Part shown: positions 2,510-28,051 of the stretch, piece by piece
Layout: each line of letters opens with the position of its first letter
Numbering within the stretch: position 1 is the stretch's first letter
Origin: Candidatus Saccharimonadota bacterium
Lineage (GTDB): Bacteria > Patescibacteriota > Saccharimonadia > Saccharimonadales > UBA4665
Reading direction: 5' to 3'
Assembly (NCBI GenBank): GCA_963716945.1
Contig: OY970322.1
Span: forward strand, 510,001 to 542,000
DNA length: 32,000 nt
Made by a program: the position numbers and the translations under genes
Notes under the pieces: model-generated
Databases searched by the model: none
What the model saw: only the letters and a program-made list of their open reading frames with translations
What the model was told of the DNA's origin: nothing

Positions 2510-3238
2510 ATGGCAGATAAGGATTGGGACTTCAAGGGCTTGAAAGCCGTTTTTTTCAACGGCACCCTGACCAAATCGCCCGAACCCAGCCACACCGAAC
2601 GGCTCATCAAAATCAGCCGCGACATCATGGACAAGCACGGCGTCCAAACCGAGTCGATCCGCACCATAGACCGCGATATCGCCGCCGGCGTCTGGCCTGA
2701 CATGCGCGAGCACGGTTATAAGACCGACGAATGGCCCGAGATCTTCAAGCTAGTCATGGAAGCTGACATTTTGGTCCTGGCCGGCCCGATCTGGCTGGGC
2801 GACAACAGCAGCGAAACCAAAAAGGTCATCGAGCGCCTTTACGCCTGCAGCAGCATCCTGAACGGGCAGGGCCAATACGCCTTCTACGGCAAAGCCGGCG
2901 GCTGTCTGATTACCGGCAATGAAGACGGCATCAAGCACTGCGCCATGAACATCCTCTATAGCCTGCAGCACCTTGGCTACACCATTCCCCCGCAAGCTGA
3001 TGCCGGCTGGATCGGCGAGGCGGGCCCCGGCGCCAGCTATGGTGATGACGACGGCCATGGCGGTCAAACCGGTTTCGACAACGATTTCACCAACCGCAAC
3101 ACGACTTTCATGACTTGGAACCTGATGCACCTGGCCAAACTGCTCAAGGCCGCCGGCGGCATCCCGGCCTACGGCAACCAGCGTTCCAAATGGGATGCCG
3201 GCGCCCGTTTCGACTTCTCCAACCCCGAATATCGTTAA
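2510..3238 (+). CDS. Flavodoxin-like fold NAD(P)H-dependent FMN reductase family protein
   Basis: AGGAGG lies a few nt upstream of the ATG. KAVFFNGTLTKSP and ADILVLAGPIWLGDNSSETKKVIERL match the flavodoxin_2/FMN-reductase pattern. Confidence 0.65.
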   Translation: MADKDWDFKGLKAVFFNGTLTKSPEPSHTERLIKISRDIMDKHGVQTESIRTIDRDIAAGVWPDMREHGYKTDEWPEIFKLVMEADILVLAGPIWLGDNSSETKKVIERLYACSSILNGQGQYAFYGKAGGCLITGNEDGIKHCAMNILYSLQHLGYTIPPQADAGWIGEAGPGASYGDDDGHGGQTGFDNDFTNRNTTFMTWNLMHLAKLLKAAGGIPAYGNQRSKWDAGARFDFSNPEYR

Positions 3239-17807: not shown

Positions 17808-18671
17808 CTAATATAGGGCCCAGCGGTTGGCTCCTAGGGGCCGGATTTTGCCGCCGACTTCGAGCATGGTCAGGGCCTGGTTAAATTCGCTGGCCGATAG
17901 CCGGCTGCCATCCAGCAATTGGTCGCCCCCCGTAACGCCAAGCAGCATCAGGTCTAGGACGGCTTGCTCGTGCGCGTTACGGCCTTTTACCTCGCGAACC
18001 GGCGTTTGGTGGGGCTGGACGCCTAAGGCGTGCAGGACGTCCAAGTAGGATGTGGCCGGCGCGGCACCGGCTTTGATCAGGTTGTTGGTACCGGCCGAAC
18101 CGGGGCTGAAGATACTGCCGGGTACCGCCAAGACCTCGCGGCCCTGCTGGAGGGCGAAGTTGGCGGTGTGCAGGCTGCCGCTTTTCTCGGCCGCCTCGGT
18201 TATTAGCACTGCCTGGGCCAGGCCTGACATCAGCCGGTTGCGGGCTATGAAGTTCTGCTTATAGGCACGCGTGCCGGACTCATATTCGCTGACTAAAGCT
18301 CCGCCCTGTTCCAATATGGCGTTTGCGAGCCGGCCGTTGGTGGCCGGCACTATCCTATCCAGCGGTCCCGGCAACACGGCTATGGCCGCGCCGCCGGCTT
18401 TCAGAGCAGCCCGGTGGGCCAGACAATCAACGCCTAAGGCCAGGCCGCTGACTATGACTATGCCCTGCTCCGCCAGCTCGCCGGCCAGCCGCGTGGTAGC
18501 CTGCCGGCCGTAGGCGGAAACGCTGCGGCTGCCGACAATCGCCACCCGCGGGCGTTTCATTAATCCATTTAGTGGAGCGCCGAGCTGGAATAAGGTTTGC
18601 GGCGGGCTGGGAATATCTCTTAGCACCCCTGGAAAATCGCTGGAGCTAAGCGTTAGCTTCTTGATATTCAT
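17808..18671 (-). CDS. dprA: DNA processing protein DprA (Smf)
   Basis: Rossmann-like DprA core: VAIVGSRSVSAYG, IVSGLALGVDCLAHRAAL, FIARNRLMSGL, SGSLHTANFALQQGREVLAVPG. Confidence 0.9.
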   Translation of the reverse strand: MNIKKLTLSSSDFPGVLRDIPSPPQTLFQLGAPLNGLMKRPRVAIVGSRSVSAYGRQATTRLAGELAEQGIVIVSGLALGVDCLAHRAALKAGGAAIAVLPGPLDRIVPATNGRLANAILEQGGALVSEYESGTRAYKQNFIARNRLMSGLAQAVLITEAAEKSGSLHTANFALQQGREVLAVPGSIFSPGSAGTNNLIKAGAAPATSYLDVLHALGVQPHQTPVREVKGRNAHEQAVLDLMLLGVTGGDQLLDGSRLSASEFNQALTMLEVGGKIRPLGANRWALY

Positions 18672-18690
18672 ATTAAAATGTTTTAAAGTA

Positions 18691-18719
18691 TTGACATAAT
18701 GAAATAGATTTGCTAAAAT
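18691..18719 (+). promoter_or_regulatory. Near-consensus sigma70 promoter TTGACA-N17-TAAAAT, divergent from dprA
   Basis: TTGACA at 18691-18696, a 17-nt spacer, then TAAAAT at 18714-18719. Confidence 0.7.
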
Positions 18720-18725
18720 AGCAAC

Positions 18726-19127
18726 TTATGATTCCTAAGTAATAGGAATTCGCACCTTTTACCCCCATTCTAACGCCTCTGGCGCTGAGACGTAATCTGA
18801 TTTAATCATTTTTTAATCCCAGTTAGCCGGAGCGAAATTGTTAGATTGTTTTAGAGCGCGTTAAGAAAAAGTTGTTACCCTCCACTTTATCTTTCACAGC
18901 CGGGTTCGCCTGGCACGCTCTAAAACAAACTAACCCCTTTAACTAGATTCCTTGGGTTGTTTCGACAATCCCGGTGGTCCCCGATTCAAAGCGAGCCTAA
19001 ATGGTAGCGGTTCTTCGGAACGGCTGACACGCATCATTTTTATATCTGGATGTCGATGTTTCGCCGGGGTGGGTTGAAGGGTGTAATGAGCCTCCAGCGG
19101 TGCCCACCCCCTCTGGAGGCTCTTTTT
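18726..19127 (+). ncRNA. Candidate structured non-coding RNA of unknown class (~400 nt)
   Basis: Bounded by the promoter above and an intrinsic terminator; no track ORF (>=60 aa) in any frame. Hairpins at 18731-18749, 18899-18914 (UUCG loop), 18954-18972 (UUCG loop) and 19006-19025 (UUCG loop). Long helix 18840-18858/18916-18934. 19066-19073 is perfectly complementary to 19103-19110. Confidence 0.55.
19088..19127 (+). terminator. Rho-independent terminator
   Basis: GAGCCTCCAG (19088-19097) pairs with CTGGAGGCTC (19113-19122) and is followed by TTTTT (19123-19127). There is no equivalent U-tract on the other strand. Confidence 0.75.
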
Positions 19128-19139
19128 AATTCACCGCGG

Positions 19140-19721
19140 CTAGGAGCTTTTTAAGTACCTGTTAAGCCGGCTGTCGGCTAATTCAACTAAATTAGCTAGC
19201 GGGCTATTGCTGCTCCTAAAGCGAAAATATGGTAGCCTGTGCTCCCGTCTTTGATCATCTTCCGGCCCGATACCCAGCAGTTTTAACCTGGCAACCGCGA
19301 ATTGCACCCTTTCCTTGTGTTTTAGCATGGCTGAATGATTAGACGGTGCCAAGTGCATGTTAACGTTGAAGGCACCTCCCAGTACTTGCGAGAATGTCCA
19401 CTCCGTACGCGGCCCATGGAAGTCGCTAGTGGCGACGTCAATATCCCTGTGGCCGCCCGGGACAAGGTATTTTAATTTCGTTGTATGGGCTCCCTCAATA
19501 GTGTCCCGGGACTCATCCTCGATCAAAGGAACCGGTAGCTCCGGATAATGTTCCACCGCAAAGTCACGCATATTTGACGCGCTTTGTCCTCCTACCATGA
19601 TGACCTGCGAGGCTGGATGGAGAGCAGCCAATCGCATGCCGACATCAATTCGGGCCATGGTGTCCAGATTTGGCTCGCCCACCTCATTACAGCCGCCATT
19701 AAGAATTAAAATCGCACCCAT
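19140..19721 (-). CDS. DUF218 (YdcF/SanA-like) domain protein
   Basis: ILILNGG, VIMVGGQ, IEDESRDTIEGA and VATSDFHGPRT follow the DUF218 pattern. Confidence 0.75.
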   Translation of the reverse strand: MGAILILNGGCNEVGEPNLDTMARIDVGMRLAALHPASQVIMVGGQSASNMRDFAVEHYPELPVPLIEDESRDTIEGAHTTKLKYLVPGGHRDIDVATSDFHGPRTEWTFSQVLGGAFNVNMHLAPSNHSAMLKHKERVQFAVARLKLLGIGPEDDQRREHRLPYFRFRSSNSPLANLVELADSRLNRYLKSS

Positions 19722-19778: not shown

Positions 19779-20420
19779 CTAGACCAGGAAGCTGCGGGTA
19801 TCGTGCGGCAGTTCGGCGCCGTAGATGTACTCGCTTAGGATGGCGTTGACTTCACGGGTCAGGTTCGACAGCTGGGACTGCTCCTCATCCGCAAATTTCT
19901 GCAGGACGAAATCGGTGCTGTCGATTTTGGCCGGTTTCTTGGGGCCGACACCGATCCGGATGCGGCCATAGCCTTCCCCGATGTGCTGCGTCACGGATTT
20001 GATGCCGTTATGGCCGGCACTGCTGCCGCCGACCCGCAATCTGATCTGCCCGAAATCAATGTCCAGCTCGTCGTGAATTACGGCGATATGTTCAGGGCTG
20101 ATCTTGTAAAAATCGACTACCGCCCTCACCGCCTCGCCGCTGAGGTTCATGAAAGTCGTCGGCTTCATGGCGATGACGCGGGTTTCGCCCATACGGCCGC
20201 CGCTCATCAGGCACTTCAGGCTTTTCTTCTCCAGCCAGTCTTCCATCTCGTCGCTCCGGCTGACGAAGCTGTCAATACACAGGAAACCGACATTATGCCG
20301 CGTCAGGTCATATTGCTTGCCTGGGTTGCCGAGTCCGACCAGCAGGACGGTTTTGTTGAGGCCGACGGTATAGAACATGGTCGGGTTGCTGACTTGCGGC
20401 CGTTTCTGGAGCCAAGCCAT
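19779..20420 (-). CDS. pth: Peptidyl-tRNA hydrolase
   Basis: LLVGLGNPGKQYDLTRHNVGF, HDELD and GGSSAGHNGIKS motifs. Start chosen at MAWLQ (AAGGAAG 9 nt upstream, 1 nt after the der stop). ATG 20378 (MFYTV) is an alternative. Confidence 0.85.
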   Translation of the reverse strand: MAWLQKRPQVSNPTMFYTVGLNKTVLLVGLGNPGKQYDLTRHNVGFLCIDSFVSRSDEMEDWLEKKSLKCLMSGGRMGETRVIAMKPTTFMNLSGEAVRAVVDFYKISPEHIAVIHDELDIDFGQIRLRVGGSSAGHNGIKSVTQHIGEGYGRIRIGVGPKKPAKIDSTDFVLQKFADEEQSQLSNLTREVNAILSEYIYGAELPHDTRSFLV

Positions 20421-20421
20421 G

Positions 20422-21786
20422 CTAAGCGGCTTCCTTGCTGAAAGTCGGGCTGGCCCCATGCTTGTGGGTGGCATGTTTTTCGATAAACCAGAGCTGGACC
20501 GGCGTACCCTCGTAGCCGTAAGCCTTGCGCAGGCGGGTTTCGAGGTAACGTCGGTAACTCCAGTGGACGAAACGGGTGTGGCTGCCGAAAATTTTGAAAG
20601 CCGGCGTCGGGTTGTCGGTCTCCTGCACCATGTAATTAAGCTTCGGGCTGCGGTTCTTGAGGCCGGCCGGCGGGTGGCTGTCGACGGCTTCGCGAAGCCA
20701 TTTATTGAGTCCGCTGGTGGCGATGCGCTTGTGCCGCTGGCTGTCGATATCGAGGGCCAAGTCGAAGATCTTGGTGACGTTCTGGCCGCTGACGGAACTG
20801 GTAAAAATAAGCGGTGCCCAAGGCACGAAGTCGAAGTTAGCGGCAATCTTCGGGGCTAGGGCGTCCCGGGTAAAAGCGTCTTTGTCCTCCACGGAATCCC
20901 ATTTGCTGACGACCAGGACCAGTCCCTTGCCGGCGTCTTTGACCATGCCGGCGATTTTTTGGTCAAGCTGGACGTTTAGTTCGTTGACGTCCATCAATAC
21001 CAGGCAGACATCAGCCTCTTCGATAGCCGCTAGGGCCCGGATAACGCTGAAGCGCTCGATGCCGACGGCGATTTTGCCGGACCGCCGGATGCCGGCGGTA
21101 TCCAGCAGCTCGACTTCGCGGCCCTTGTAGCGCACTACGCTGCGGTTGACGTCGCGCGTAGTGCCGGCCCGGTCGGCGACTACGGCTTGCTGCTTCTTGC
21201 TGAGGGTGTTAAAAAGCTGCGACTTGCCGACGTTCGGCCGGCCGACAATGGCGATTCGCAAGCGGTCGTCATCGGCTTGCTCGGTGGCTTTGGGAATGAT
21301 TCCTATCAGCGTGTCCAGGAGCTGCTCAATGCCCTTCTGCTGGGTCGTGCTGGTGCGCAGGATCGGTTTGATGCCGAGACGGTCAAAACCGCTCAAATCG
21401 GCCCCCTTGGCCTTATCAAGCTTATTAATGACCAGGAAGACCGGTTTGCGGCTCTTGAGCGCCATTTTGGCTACCCGGCGGTCCTCTTCGGTGATTGGGA
21501 CGTCGGCTTCTACGACTACCCAGATGACATCGGCGCTGTCAGCGGCCTGGGTTATCTGTTCCTGGATGGTAAATTCGAATTCGTCTTCCGGGTCCTTGAT
21601 GCCGGCGGTGTCGACCAGCCAGAAATGCTGGCCCTTGTATTCGGCTTTGGCCATGATGCTGTCACGGGTCGTTCCCGCTTCGCGGGCAACAATCGTTTCA
21701 CGCCGGTCCAAGACCGAATTGAACAGGCTGGACTTGCCGACATTAGTCCGGCCGACGATCGCCACGATTGGTAATTTTTTGCTCAC
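20422..21786 (-). CDS. der: Ribosome-associated GTPase Der (EngA)
   Basis: Two tandem G domains (GRTNVGKSSLFN and GRPNVGKSQLFN, DTAG x2, NKLD/SKWD) plus a KH-like C-terminus. GTG start. Confidence 0.95.
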   Translation of the reverse strand: MSKKLPIVAIVGRTNVGKSSLFNSVLDRRETIVAREAGTTRDSIMAKAEYKGQHFWLVDTAGIKDPEDEFEFTIQEQITQAADSADVIWVVVEADVPITEEDRRVAKMALKSRKPVFLVINKLDKAKGADLSGFDRLGIKPILRTSTTQQKGIEQLLDTLIGIIPKATEQADDDRLRIAIVGRPNVGKSQLFNTLSKKQQAVVADRAGTTRDVNRSVVRYKGREVELLDTAGIRRSGKIAVGIERFSVIRALAAIEEADVCLVLMDVNELNVQLDQKIAGMVKDAGKGLVLVVSKWDSVEDKDAFTRDALAPKIAANFDFVPWAPLIFTSSVSGQNVTKIFDLALDIDSQRHKRIATSGLNKWLREAVDSHPPAGLKNRSPKLNYMVQETDNPTPAFKIFGSHTRFVHWSYRRYLETRLRKAYGYEGTPVQLWFIEKHATHKHGASPTFSKEAA

Positions 21787-24933: not shown

Positions 24934-26436
24934 TTATAGGGCAATACTGCCGGGGTCGGCCGGGTTGTTTGGCAAGACGGAACTGGCCGCCGGCTCGGCT
25001 TCTGCTGCGGTGGGCGTAATCGTGCTGCCGGTAGGCGGTGCCGGAGGCGTCAACGAAGGGGTGGCGACGATCTTGGGGTCCGGCGGCTGGTCGGGCTCGC
25101 CATTGACTACGATGGACATCGGTTCGGGTGTTCCGGTCACCTCTTTGGCCTTAGCTTCCTTGGCAGCTTCGATAGCCAATAAGGTGTCAAGGTCCTGTTT
25201 AGGCTCGTCGTTGAGCGGCGTAATGACTTTTTTGTGGGCAATCGTTACGGTCGATGACTTAGCCGGGTCTGCCGGTTCCGGCGGCTTAGGGGCTTCAGTC
25301 GGTTCGACTACGGTGGCGGACGCAGTTTCGTTACTGGCGGCTTCGGTCTGGCTGCCGGCCTCGGTACTGTCTATCAAGGCCTGGGCGGCGTCCACTACCA
25401 GCTTGTCGTCATTGGCCGTATCGGCGGCTGACGGCTTGTCCGCCTCGGCTTCGGCCGGAGCGTCATTATCTTCAGGCTGGCTAGCCGTCTCGGCCGATGG
25501 CGGTGTTGCCTCTTCGCTGGCACCAGCTACAAAATCTTCTATACGGCTTTCGACACCGGCTTCTTCCTGAGCTGTTGACTGGGCACTACTGTCTGATACG
25601 GCAGCTGCCGCCGTATCGGCTTCAACTTTTGTGTCAGGTTCGGATTGGGGTTGAGGTTCGGGTGTTGGCTCTGTCTGGGCTTCGGATTCGGGCGTTTCGG
25701 TGGCTGCCGGAGGGGCGGTATCGCTGCCGGTCGAGGTTGAGCTGGGCTCGTCAGGCTCGTCGGCGGCCGGGCTGGTGACCGGTATGGAAACGGCCGGCGC
25801 CGGCGGAGCCGGAGCCGGTGTTGAGGCCGGCGGATCTACGGGACTCGGGGCTGGCGGTTCCGGGGCCGGAGGGGCTGGTACGGCGGCCGGGGTAACCGGC
25901 GCAGGCGCGGGAGCGGCCGGCGTCGTGTCAGCAACCGGAACGGTTGGCGCCGGATCCGGTATGGCTGGAGCTGCCGGAGGGGCGGCCGTTTCGGTTGCAG
26001 GCGGCGTTGCCGGACTTGGTGCGGGTTGAGCCGGTGCCTGAGTCTCTTGGGTTGAGGCCGCGGCCGGGCTGTCATTAAGCAGTTCGTGGGTGACTTTGAC
26101 AATATCTTCAAGCGTGACTTGCGATTTAACGAGGTAACGGTCAGCACCGAGACTGTTGGCCCGCTGCTGGTCGTCGCTTTGGCCGAGGGCCGTTAGCATG
26201 ATGACTTTTACGGCCTTGAGCTCGTCGGTATTGCGCAGGATGTCGAGCATCTCGAAGCCGCTGATTTTGGGCATCATGATATCCGAGATGATAAGGTCGG
26301 GTTTTTCGGCCTTGGCCAGTACCAAAGCCTCTTCGCCGTCTTTGGCTGAAACTATCTGGTAGCCCTCAGCCTGTAAACGTGCTCCATATATCTCGCGCAA
26401 ATTATTGTCATCTTCGACGAGCATCAGTTTTGCCAT
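24934..26436 (-). CDS. Response regulator receiver domain fused to a ~380-aa Pro/Ala/Thr/Glu-rich low-complexity tail
   Basis: REC domain: LMLVEDD, DLIISDIMMPKISGF, IMLTA, KS. The remainder is PAPAP-type repeats with no recognisable output domain. Confidence 0.8.
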   Translation of the reverse strand: MAKLMLVEDDNNLREIYGARLQAEGYQIVSAKDGEEALVLAKAEKPDLIISDIMMPKISGFEMLDILRNTDELKAVKVIMLTALGQSDDQQRANSLGADRYLVKSQVTLEDIVKVTHELLNDSPAAASTQETQAPAQPAPSPATPPATETAAPPAAPAIPDPAPTVPVADTTPAAPAPAPVTPAAVPAPPAPEPPAPSPVDPPASTPAPAPPAPAVSIPVTSPAADEPDEPSSTSTGSDTAPPAATETPESEAQTEPTPEPQPQSEPDTKVEADTAAAAVSDSSAQSTAQEEAGVESRIEDFVAGASEEATPPSAETASQPEDNDAPAEAEADKPSAADTANDDKLVVDAAQALIDSTEAGSQTEAASNETASATVVEPTEAPKPPEPADPAKSSTVTIAHKKVITPLNDEPKQDLDTLLAIEAAKEAKAKEVTGTPEPMSIVVNGEPDQPPDPKIVATPSLTPPAPPTGSTITPTAAEAEPAASSVLPNNPADPGSIAL

Positions 26437-27976: not shown

Positions 27977-28051
27977 GGCCTCATCGTCTAGCGGCTAGGA
28001 CACCAGGTTCTCATCCTGGCAACCGGGGTTCGATTCCCCGTGAGGTCACCA
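27977..28051 (+). tRNA. tRNA-Glu (anticodon CUC), CCA encoded
   Basis: Manual cloverleaf. Acceptor GGCCTCA/TGAGGTC (one G-U). D arm GTCT-AGCGGCTA-GGAC. Anticodon arm CCAGG-TTCTCAT-CCTGG. Variable loop CAAC. T arm CGGGG-TTCGATT-CCCCG. Discriminator A, then CCA. Confidence 0.9.

Follow-up and report, generated by a model that had tools for sequence, protein, structure and literature searches.

Evidence for an undescribed structured non-coding RNA gene next to dprA in Saccharibacteria

Locus and transcription signals

Saccharibacteria (TM7) are ultra-small epibionts within the Candidate Phyla Radiation (CPR), with genomes of approximately 1 Mb and a coding density of approximately 94%. What, in such a genome, occupies a gap of 468 nucleotides (nt) between two genes? 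This question is raised by a 32,000-nt stretch of Saccharibacteria DNA (assembly GCA_963716945.1, contig OY970322.1, positions 510,001 to 542,000; hereafter referred to as the window), in which dprA (17808-18671, minus strand) is separated by such a gap from a DUF218 gene (19140-19721, minus strand), with topA, pth, and der lying beyond these two flanking genes. A preliminary description of the gap had proposed a candidate undescribed structured non-coding RNA (ncRNA). This proposal is supported by the comparative analysis, as the gap almost certainly contains a genuine conserved structured ncRNA gene, and this RNA probably belongs to no described family. Three outcomes that the preliminary description had named as speaking against its proposal did not occur: no match to an Rfam family was found, the region was present in relatives and displayed abundant compensatory changes, and no small open reading frame (ORF) was conserved.

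The RNA gene is preceded by a promoter on the plus strand (18691-18719), consisting of a -35 hexamer TTGACA (18691-18696), a 17-nt spacer, an extended -10 dinucleotide TG (18711-18712), and a -10 hexamer TAAAAT (18714-18719). It scored 11 out of 12, plus the TG, and was the best of nine promoter-like sites in the surrounding 3 kb (2.1 in shuffled sequences). Among 115 distinct homologues, the -35 hexamer read TTGACA (96), TTGACT (14), or TTGACG (5), the 17-nt spacer was kept in 109 and a TGn-extended -10 hexamer (TAnAAT-like) in 114. The RNA is probably highly expressed, because this promoter is about as strong as sigma-70-type promoters get. The predicted primary transcript of approximately 400 nt (18725-19127, plus strand) would start about 6-8 nt past the -10 hexamer and end at the U-tract of an intrinsic terminator (19088-19127, plus strand). 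The latter consists of a 10-bp GC stem, formed by GAGCCTCCAG (19088-19097) and CTGGAGGCTC (19113-19122), followed by TTTTT (19123-19127). Its stem is extended by pairing of 19098-19100 with 19110-19112 and encloses an invariant 9-nt loop, UGCCCACCC (19101-19109), the motif TGCCCACCC being present in all 115 distinct sequences; because the loop exceeds 8 nt, the terminator was missed by a simple scan. The terminator stem was 92-100% paired, with four compensatory pairs in the long forms of the RNA, to which that of the window belongs, and eight in the short forms. On the minus strand, the hairpin is followed by AUUACA, without U's; the promoter and the covarying terminator are conserved on the plus strand only. 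Both the promoter firing away from dprA and the plus-strand-specific terminator were correctly recognised in the preliminary description. In addition, the plus strand of the region folded with a minimum free energy (MFE) of -145.5 kcal/mol, compared with -108.8 +/- 6.2 kcal/mol for dinucleotide shuffles (z = -5.9; none of 100 shuffles as good), the z-score of the minus strand being -4.5.

Distribution and synteny

A scan for DprA, with one genome per GTDB species, returned almost solely metagenome-assembled genomes of Saccharimonadales, at 41-77% protein identity. With the 468-nt gap as query, blastn and nhmmer retrieved the whole region of approximately 450 nt upstream of dprA, on the opposite strand, including in relatives of which DprA is only about 55% identical, and the 5' and 3' parts of the RNA were detected in still more distant relatives. 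The region could be aligned over its full length in relatives with DprA identities of 43-69%, and each of the 17 Saccharibacteria species genomes that could be evaluated carried the RNA in divergent orientation to dprA, as did at least 120 metagenome contigs. Outside the Saccharibacteria, the dprA loci of Roseburia and Alkalispirochaeta gave no match to the RNA by blastn or nhmmer. A 12-sequence alignment of full-length GTDB loci displayed an invariant promoter in all its columns, several invariant blocks, and covarying hairpins. Full-length homology was found by nhmmer in about 130 loci, the profile search giving one copy per locus, and a metagenome scan with a pattern of two invariant blocks (TACCCTCCACT N24-54 CTAAYCCCTTTAAC) returned at least 120 contigs. 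From these loci, 122 full-length copies (115 distinct) were extracted, from the end of the -10 hexamer to the terminator U-tract. Their length ranged from 253 to 530 nt, and their identity to the window decreased to approximately 50%. The lineages that carry the RNA span soil, water, and the human oral cavity.

The gene order was the same in nearly all loci, with topA and dprA transcribed away from the RNA gene on its 5' side and pth and der converging on it from its 3' side. Similarly, the distance from the dprA start codon to the -10 hexamer of the RNA was 49-50 nt in nearly all loci, and the pth stop codon was often located 0-50 nt from the RNA terminator. The RNA was retained in loci where dprA is missing (L128, L129, L092, L103, and L138). 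In an oral Nanogingivalaceae locus (L143), with rplJ/rplL and dprA-PMT-ybaB-recR as neighbours, the context is wholly different and the RNA is still divergent from dprA. In one group of loci, the next gene on the strand of the RNA is a small one that has a separate TTGACA promoter and codes for an apparently hydrophobic product of 83 amino acids (L146, 2030-2281, minus strand). One contig labelled Candidatus Dormiibacterota (L001; DASRLG010000058.1) codes for a DprA that is 77% identical to that of the window and is probably mis-binned; its RNA region is cut off, because the contig starts inside dprA. Phage-borne copies were considered and rejected, as five near-identical IMG/VR contigs (L149-L153) matched GGGTTRAAGGG-N-TGCCCACCC by chance in unrelated sequence and contained neither further parts of the RNA nor dprA, topA, or pth as neighbours.

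Covariation and secondary structure

The presence of the region in relatives was accompanied by extensive covariation. In 24 long-form sequences, including the window, 95.0% of the alignment cells of the proposed helices were paired, compared with 34-50% in slid controls, and 24 pairs displayed compensatory changes, compared with 5-14 in the controls. For the 3' domain of 18 short forms, including those of the Nanogingivalaceae, these figures were 94.3% versus 35-55% and 16 pairs versus 3-6. For helix P3 with hairpin P3a (36 sequences), 93.3% of cells were paired, compared with 26-49% in slid controls, with 147 compensatory cells. In each of these three sets, none of 500 shuffles reached the observed covariation. 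The variable hairpins P1, P3a, and P5' are slightly out of register in the MAFFT alignments, which lowers their paired percentages. Within the supported helices, G-U cells outnumbered A-C cells by 209 to 30; therefore, the functional strand is the plus strand, the same as that of the promoter and the terminator. The loop of the terminator and two further elements, J1/2 and L3, are invariant while their flanking stems covary.

RNAalifold models of the fold were computed separately from 14 short and 24 long forms, and both yielded the same core. Mutual information with average product correction (MI/APC) over 115 sequences placed its top pairs in the terminator, P3, P6, and hairpin d. All coordinates below refer to the plus strand of the window. 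The RNA starts with a 5' hairpin, P1 (18730-18750), of 8 bp with loop AGUAA, which the preliminary description had placed at 18731-18749; a P1 hairpin of at least 6 bp was present in 99% of 97 distinct P1 segments, which themselves are just 57% identical. It is followed by J1/2 (18752-18774), a C-rich single strand, GCACCUUUUACCCCCAUUCUAAC, that is unpaired in the comparative models and of which the 3' end is the 5' copy of CUAAC. Its consensus, GCACCUU(U/A)UACCCCC.AUUCUAAC, was near-invariant in three alignments, including the 12-sequence one. Between the 5' CUAAC and GUUAG lies P2a (18775-18839), a variable insertion hairpin that is present or absent and covaries among relatives; in short forms without P2a, CUAAC and GUUAG are connected by a 4-nt link.

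The central part of the RNA is organised by P3, a long helix forming a three-way junction, in which the 19 positions of GUUAGAUUGUUUUAGAGCG (18840-18858) pair with CGCUCUAAAACAAACUAAC (18916-18934) apart from a single A.A mismatch, exactly as initially described. This helix was 99.5% paired in the long forms, and its upper part displayed compensatory changes at nine of ten pairs, with 95.6% of cells paired. Enclosed by P3, hairpin P3a (18868-18888; AAAG/CUUU) carries loop L3 (18872-18884), a loop of 13-14 nt with the invariant UACCCUCCAC, of which the CCUCC matches the core of the anti-Shine-Dalgarno sequence. The P3a stem shows covariation, AAAG/CUUU alternating with CUAG/CUAG, and 79% of its cells were paired even with the register slips; TACCCTCCAC of L3 was invariant in the 12 full-length DprA-retrieved GTDB loci and also in L014 and L017-L019. 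In the Nanogingivalaceae, the most divergent copies, L3 reads ACCCCUCCUUU or UUCCUCUAC, with the CCUCC core kept. Distally, P3 ends in a UUCG-capped hairpin, P3b (18899-18914; GCCGGG-UUCG-CCUGGC), of variable length and sequence among relatives. Expansions at hairpin tips enlarge the family, as illustrated by insertions of approximately 190 nt in P2a of L060 (about 620-1150) and in distal P3 of L100 (2726-3168).

P3 is directly abutted, without a linker, by the 5' strand of P4, CCCUUUAAC (18935-18943), which forms a 9-bp long-range helix with GUUGAAGGG (19073-19081) and thereby closes a multi-hairpin 3' domain. P4 was paired in 100% of cells; it is mostly invariant, with compensated variants in L016 (CCCUUUGAC/GUCGAAGGG) and L143 (CUCUUUGAC/GUCGAAGAG). 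Within the domain, hairpin P5' (18946-18979) includes a UUCG-capped stem (18954-18972) and has a covarying outer stem, 67% of cells being paired in the alignment with its register slips. P6 consists of GCGAG (18991-18995) and UUCGC (19060-19064); it contains the top MI/APC pair C18992:G19063, was paired in 94% of cells, and displayed compensatory changes at two pairs. It encloses hairpin c (19006-19025; AGCGGUUC-UUCG-GAACGGCU), with one G.G mismatch and compensatory changes at all four tested pairs, and hairpin d (19027-19059; ACACGCAUC ... GAUGUCGAUGU), with compensatory changes at eight of nine pairs and 93.5% of cells paired. All three UUCG hairpins, namely P3b, the one in P5', and hairpin c, are found where the preliminary description had located them. 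In short forms, the P5'/P6/c/d interior is replaced by a single hairpin P5 and a mini-hairpin, P5 being 95.5% paired with five compensatory pairs. The domain ends with an invariant G-rich strand, GGGGUGGGUUGAAGGG (19066-19081), which includes the 3' strand of P4. Its first part, GGGGUGGG (19066-19073), is invariant, and GGTGGGTTRAAGGG was present in 107 of the 115 distinct sequences.

Alternative pairings

Each of the invariant blocks has two candidate pairing partners. GUUAG, the first 5 nt of the P3 5' strand, has as partners either the 5' CUAAC (18770-18774), forming P2, or the 3' ACUAAY, forming the base of P3. Neither of these pairings covaries; both are invariant and approximately 100% pairable, with predicted probabilities of 0.35 and 0.59, respectively. 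In favour of P2, insertions in L038 and L083 extend the CUAAC:GUUAG helix coaxially and a compensated variant occurs in L065, whereas L030 entirely lacks the 5' CUAAC. In L075 (2487-2655), GUUAGA is duplicated, so that P2 and the base of P3 can form simultaneously.

The MFE structure of the window is closed by a helix between J1/2 and the 3' G-rich strand (19066-19083), which is thermodynamically strong in the window. As a conserved fold this helix was rejected, since it contains an A.A mismatch in most relatives and P4 covaries instead. The preliminary description had further noted that GGGGTGGG (19066-19073) is complementary to CCCACCCC in the terminator (19103-19110), implying a pseudoknot or an alternative fold. 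The complementarity is present; covariation in favour of a pseudoknot is not, as none of 18 sequences contained a compensatory change. Four pairs between GGGUGGG and the terminator loop never vary, and two positions change without compensation (mismatches in four and six of the 18 sequences). The first GGG of the strand can alternatively pair with a local CCC, and the outermost pair, 19066:19110, is in conflict with the terminator stem, given the covariation of G19100-C19110 (G-C/A-U). A pseudoknot between GGGUGGG and the terminator loop is possible.

Known RNA families and coding potential

When the whole window was searched with the 4227 models of Rfam 15 at gathering thresholds, the sole match was a tRNA at 27977. 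At E<=10, the RNA region gave three junk matches, including a Tetrahymena snoRNA and a human lncRNA, with 15-18 bits compared with gathering scores of 45-85, so that the absence of a known-family match extends to this relaxed threshold. No consistent weak match was found in 12 homologous loci, and a further 147 kb of loci gave tRNAs only. These results, together with a motif search in the 122 homologues, bear out the initial statement that signatures of transfer-messenger RNA (tmRNA), RNase P RNA, signal recognition particle (SRP) RNA, and 6S RNA are absent. Bacterial RNase P RNA is characterised by a P4 pseudoknot with CR-I (GGAAAGUC) and CR-V (ACAGAA...GGCUUA) strands. CR-I GGAAAGTC and the CR-V pattern occurred in none of the 122 homologues, AAAGTCC occurred in one, and neither RF00010 nor RF00011 gave a match at E<=10 on the window or the 12 homologues. 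Further, the 5' and 3' ends do not pair with each other as in an RNase P-type P1, the 5' end being a local hairpin and the 3' end the terminator hairpin, likewise local, of which the stem covaries. No tmRNA was found in the window by ARAGORN, and the T-loop GGTTCGANTCC and a CCACCA 3' end were both absent from the 122 homologues, as was a conserved ORF. Instead of the rod of approximately 150-200 nt with a central bubble that is typical of 6S RNA, the fold is multi-branched and 253-530 nt long, and RF00013 did not match at E<=10 on the window or the 12 homologues. The SRP motifs GGAAG.AGC and GGTC.GGAA were present in two and none of the 122 homologues, respectively, without an Rfam match.

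A riboswitch or cis-acting leader is contradicted by the gene arrangement, as the downstream genes are convergent (the DUF218 gene in the window, pth and der in other loci) and the stem of the terminator has no alternative partner; the initial observation that no plus-strand gene lies downstream for cis-regulation holds. In contrast, the RNA has the properties of an independent ncRNA gene, namely a promoter and terminator of its own on one strand that are conserved together with the body, the transcript being predicted from sequence signals. By way of analogy, it also displays the hallmark of small RNAs (sRNAs) with C-rich loops, an unpaired C-rich motif in a hairpin loop, in the form of UACCCUCCAC in L3 of the covarying P3a. 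No ORF is conserved; the longest ORF (41 amino acids on the plus strand of the window RNA) varies in frame and position across the 122 homologues, with a minimum of 17 amino acids, and the indels in the alignments are not multiples of three. In L148, a spurious 47-amino-acid ORF (2810-2953, minus strand) was annotated by gene callers where the 5' part of the RNA lies. Full-text literature searches retrieved no paper describing this RNA. Within the reach of Rfam 15 and of the literature that could be searched, an undescribed structured ncRNA family is therefore supported, and it was rated as a new RNA class, although structured bacterial ncRNAs with transcription units of their own are in themselves well known.

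Possible function

The explanation that accounts best for these observations overall, and that is favoured with modest confidence, is an independent structured ncRNA gene at a fixed Saccharibacteria locus, acting in trans and using C-rich strands for G-rich partners. Such an RNA would be abundant and stable, and its scaffold would present three exposed C-rich elements, namely UACCCCC in J1/2, UACCCUCCAC in L3, and UGCCCACCC in the terminator loop. The likeliest partners would be Shine-Dalgarno-like regions of mRNAs, which the anti-Shine-Dalgarno-like CCUCC loop may occlude; alternatively, the partner may be a protein recognising C-rich strands. This specific pairing mechanism is the best single guess and a tentative one. 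Several points weigh against it and against the trans-acting RNA in general. The existence, ends, and abundance of the transcript are predicted from signals in the DNA. No convincing trans target emerged from a duplex scan of the 32-kb window, and complementarity of CCUCC to Shine-Dalgarno sequences is generic. Instead of being exposed, the C-rich terminator loop may be sequestered in an internal pseudoknot. Known sRNAs with C-rich loops are far smaller and less conserved than this scaffold, to which a ribonucleoprotein (RNP) or other function fits at least as well. Lastly, the invariance of TACCCTCCACT and CTAAYCCCTTTAAC is guaranteed in the metagenome set, because both belong to the retrieval pattern, and is independently tested by the DprA-retrieved GTDB loci only; in these loci, both blocks are invariant too.

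A large, conserved, multi-domain RNA with invariant single strands, a conserved internal loop in P3 (R.A/U.W), and CCUCC in L3 could instead be an RNP scaffold or a decoy that sequesters or guides a protein, for example as a mimic of the C-rich 3' tail of 16S rRNA (CACCUCCUUUCUAA). Late 30S assembly and processing factors recognise this tail, and mimicry by RNA has precedents, as 6S RNA mimics promoter DNA and CsrB mimics ribosome-binding sites. J1/2 (CACCUU.UACCCCC.AUUCUAA) starts and ends like the 16S rRNA 3' tail, and the neighbours pth and der are genes for translation and ribosome biogenesis. The resemblance is short, however, and could be due to chance, and the neighbouring genes are convergent and hence not co-transcribed with the RNA; this explanation is considered unlikely. 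A further reading, regarded as rather improbable, would be a lineage-wide housekeeping RNP RNA, possibly a ribozyme, unique to Saccharibacteria or shared with perhaps more of the CPR, for instance a mimic of the 16S rRNA 3' tail or anti-Shine-Dalgarno sequence that gates translation or late 30S maturation, with a two-state switch in its invariant blocks. Toggling between two folds upon binding of a ligand or protein, or with temperature, could also be the function itself, altering the exposed strands or read-through into the convergent genes. GUUAG can indeed pair with the 5' or the 3' CUAAC and GUUGAAGGG with CCCUUUAAC or J1/2, the compensated P2 variant of L065 and the duplicated GUUAGA of L075 are consistent with it, and invariant blocks would be expected, because they would be constrained by two pairings. 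Yet, termination looks constitutive, because no alternative pairing involves the terminator stem, the alternative J1/2 helix is mismatched in most relatives, L030 lacks the 5' CUAAC, and neither a ligand nor a downstream gene hints at what would be sensed; such a sensor is given very little credence.

Local control of dprA/topA or pth by cis-antisense or transcription interference, with the plus-strand promoter opposing minus-strand read-through from pth or the DUF218 gene into dprA-topA or competing with a back-to-back dprA promoter, would fit the geometry of the locus, that is the fixed distance of 49-50 nt from the RNA -10 hexamer to the dprA ATG in most loci, the 20 nt between this ATG and the -35 hexamer with dprA lacking a Shine-Dalgarno sequence, and the frequent proximity of the pth stop codon to the terminator. 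Minus-strand read-through is plausible, because in the window the terminator hairpin lacks a U-rich tract when read on that strand. Interference, however, needs no invariant, covarying, multi-domain fold with G-U-specific pairs, and the RNA persists without dprA and in the altered upstream context of L143, making this an improbable function. A highly diverged housekeeping RNA (RNase P RNA, tmRNA, 6S RNA, or SRP RNA) missed by standard models would also be in keeping with the size of approximately 250-530 nt, the strength of the promoter, and conservation throughout the phylum. Just two ncRNAs are annotated in a Nanosynbacter genome (PMC8830319), and CPR RNase P RNA can fall below Rfam thresholds, which Lui et al. 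(2021; PMC8172020) had to lower for 10 of their 35 circular CPR genomes. In that same study, however, class-A RNase P RNA was recovered by RF00010 in all circular CPR genomes, including two Saccharimonadia. With no Rfam match at E<=10, no ARAGORN tmRNA, no signature motifs in 122 sequences, local hairpins at both ends in place of a P1 or acceptor stem, and a multi-branched fold instead of a 6S rod, this possibility is very slight. Finally, the 19-bp inverted repeat and the short ORFs of 26-41 amino acids in the window could suggest a degraded or small coding gene or a feature acting as DNA, for example a protein-binding site or a mobile element bounded by inverted repeats. These ORFs are conserved in neither frame, position, nor length, the indels do not preserve a frame, the region is single-copy at a fixed syntenic position, and the compensatory changes with their strong bias for G-U over A-C fit selection at the RNA level on one strand only, so that the chance that the region is not an RNA gene is close to negligible.

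Comparison with described RNAs and significance

The RNA resembles the raiA motif RNA, OLE, ROOL, and GOLLD, in that it is independently transcribed, hundreds of nt long, multi-domain, and lineage-restricted, with long-range helices, covarying hairpins, and invariant loop or junction blocks. It differs from these RNAs by the lack of a match to their Rfam models, its occurrence in Saccharibacteria and the CPR, its architecture, and its hairpin-tip expansions, the latter being reminiscent of the expansions of CPR rRNA. The raiA motif RNA likewise adjoins a competence gene, comFC. With RsaE/RoxS and other Gram-positive sRNAs with a UCCC motif, the RNA shares a promoter and terminator of its own and unpaired C-rich hairpin loops that may pair with Shine-Dalgarno sequences; however, the RsaE/RoxS-type sRNAs are approximately 100 nt long with simple folds, whereas this RNA of 250-530 nt possesses a three-way junction and a multi-hairpin 3' domain and lacks an Rfam match. 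Like 6S RNA and CsrB, it is probably abundant, with a strong housekeeping-type promoter and a lineage-wide distribution, and it possibly acts by mimicry or sequestration, but it has neither the rod with central bubble of the former nor the repeated GGA loops of the latter and matches neither model. In size, long-range helices, and universal presence in its lineage it is similar to class-A RNase P RNA, including the diverged CPR forms that can escape default Rfam thresholds, from which it is distinguished by the absence of the P4/CR-I/CR-V signatures, of an end-paired P1, and of an RF00010 match at E<=10.

The near-perfect promoter, the retention of one locus across soil, water, and human oral lineages, and the invariant blocks at approximately 50% overall identity indicate that the RNA is likely important. 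Few large conserved bacterial ncRNAs are known, their functions having repeatedly proved novel, and this RNA would extend their number by a new class. With more than 100 sequences and a fold supported by covariation, the family is well defined and testable, and some Saccharibacteria are cultivable and genetically tractable via natural transformation. For Saccharibacteria, with their small and densely coding genomes, such a gene is unusual; a 2022 preprint on the TM7x transcriptome stated that no small RNAs were validated in TM7x. For genome annotation, the RNA can serve as a marker in CPR genomes, flagging an intergenic region that is sometimes given spurious small ORFs, such as that of L148.

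Other features of the window

The dprA gene, with its ATG at 18671 on the minus strand, is preceded on its own strand (18672-18690) by a hexamer TAAAAC, TAAAAT in relatives, with its end 8 nt upstream of the ATG. The dprA mRNA may therefore be leaderless and arise from a promoter that is arranged back to back with that of the RNA and overlaps it. Next to the DUF218 gene, the predicted Pth ORF (19779-20846, minus strand; 355 amino acids) overlaps der (20422-21786, minus strand), and its match to the Pfam domain Pept_tRNA_hydro starts at residue 168 only; the true pth start is probably located near 20345. A spike in GC content (25601-26000; 0.71, with a GC skew of +0.28) lies within an ORF of 500 amino acids (24934-26436, minus strand) and corresponds to a low-complexity stretch rich in Pro, Ala, and Gly, probably a linker of a surface or secreted protein. 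Lastly, a tRNA-Glu (CTC) gene (27977-28051) is the sole RNA gene that Rfam and ARAGORN recognised across the 32-kb window.

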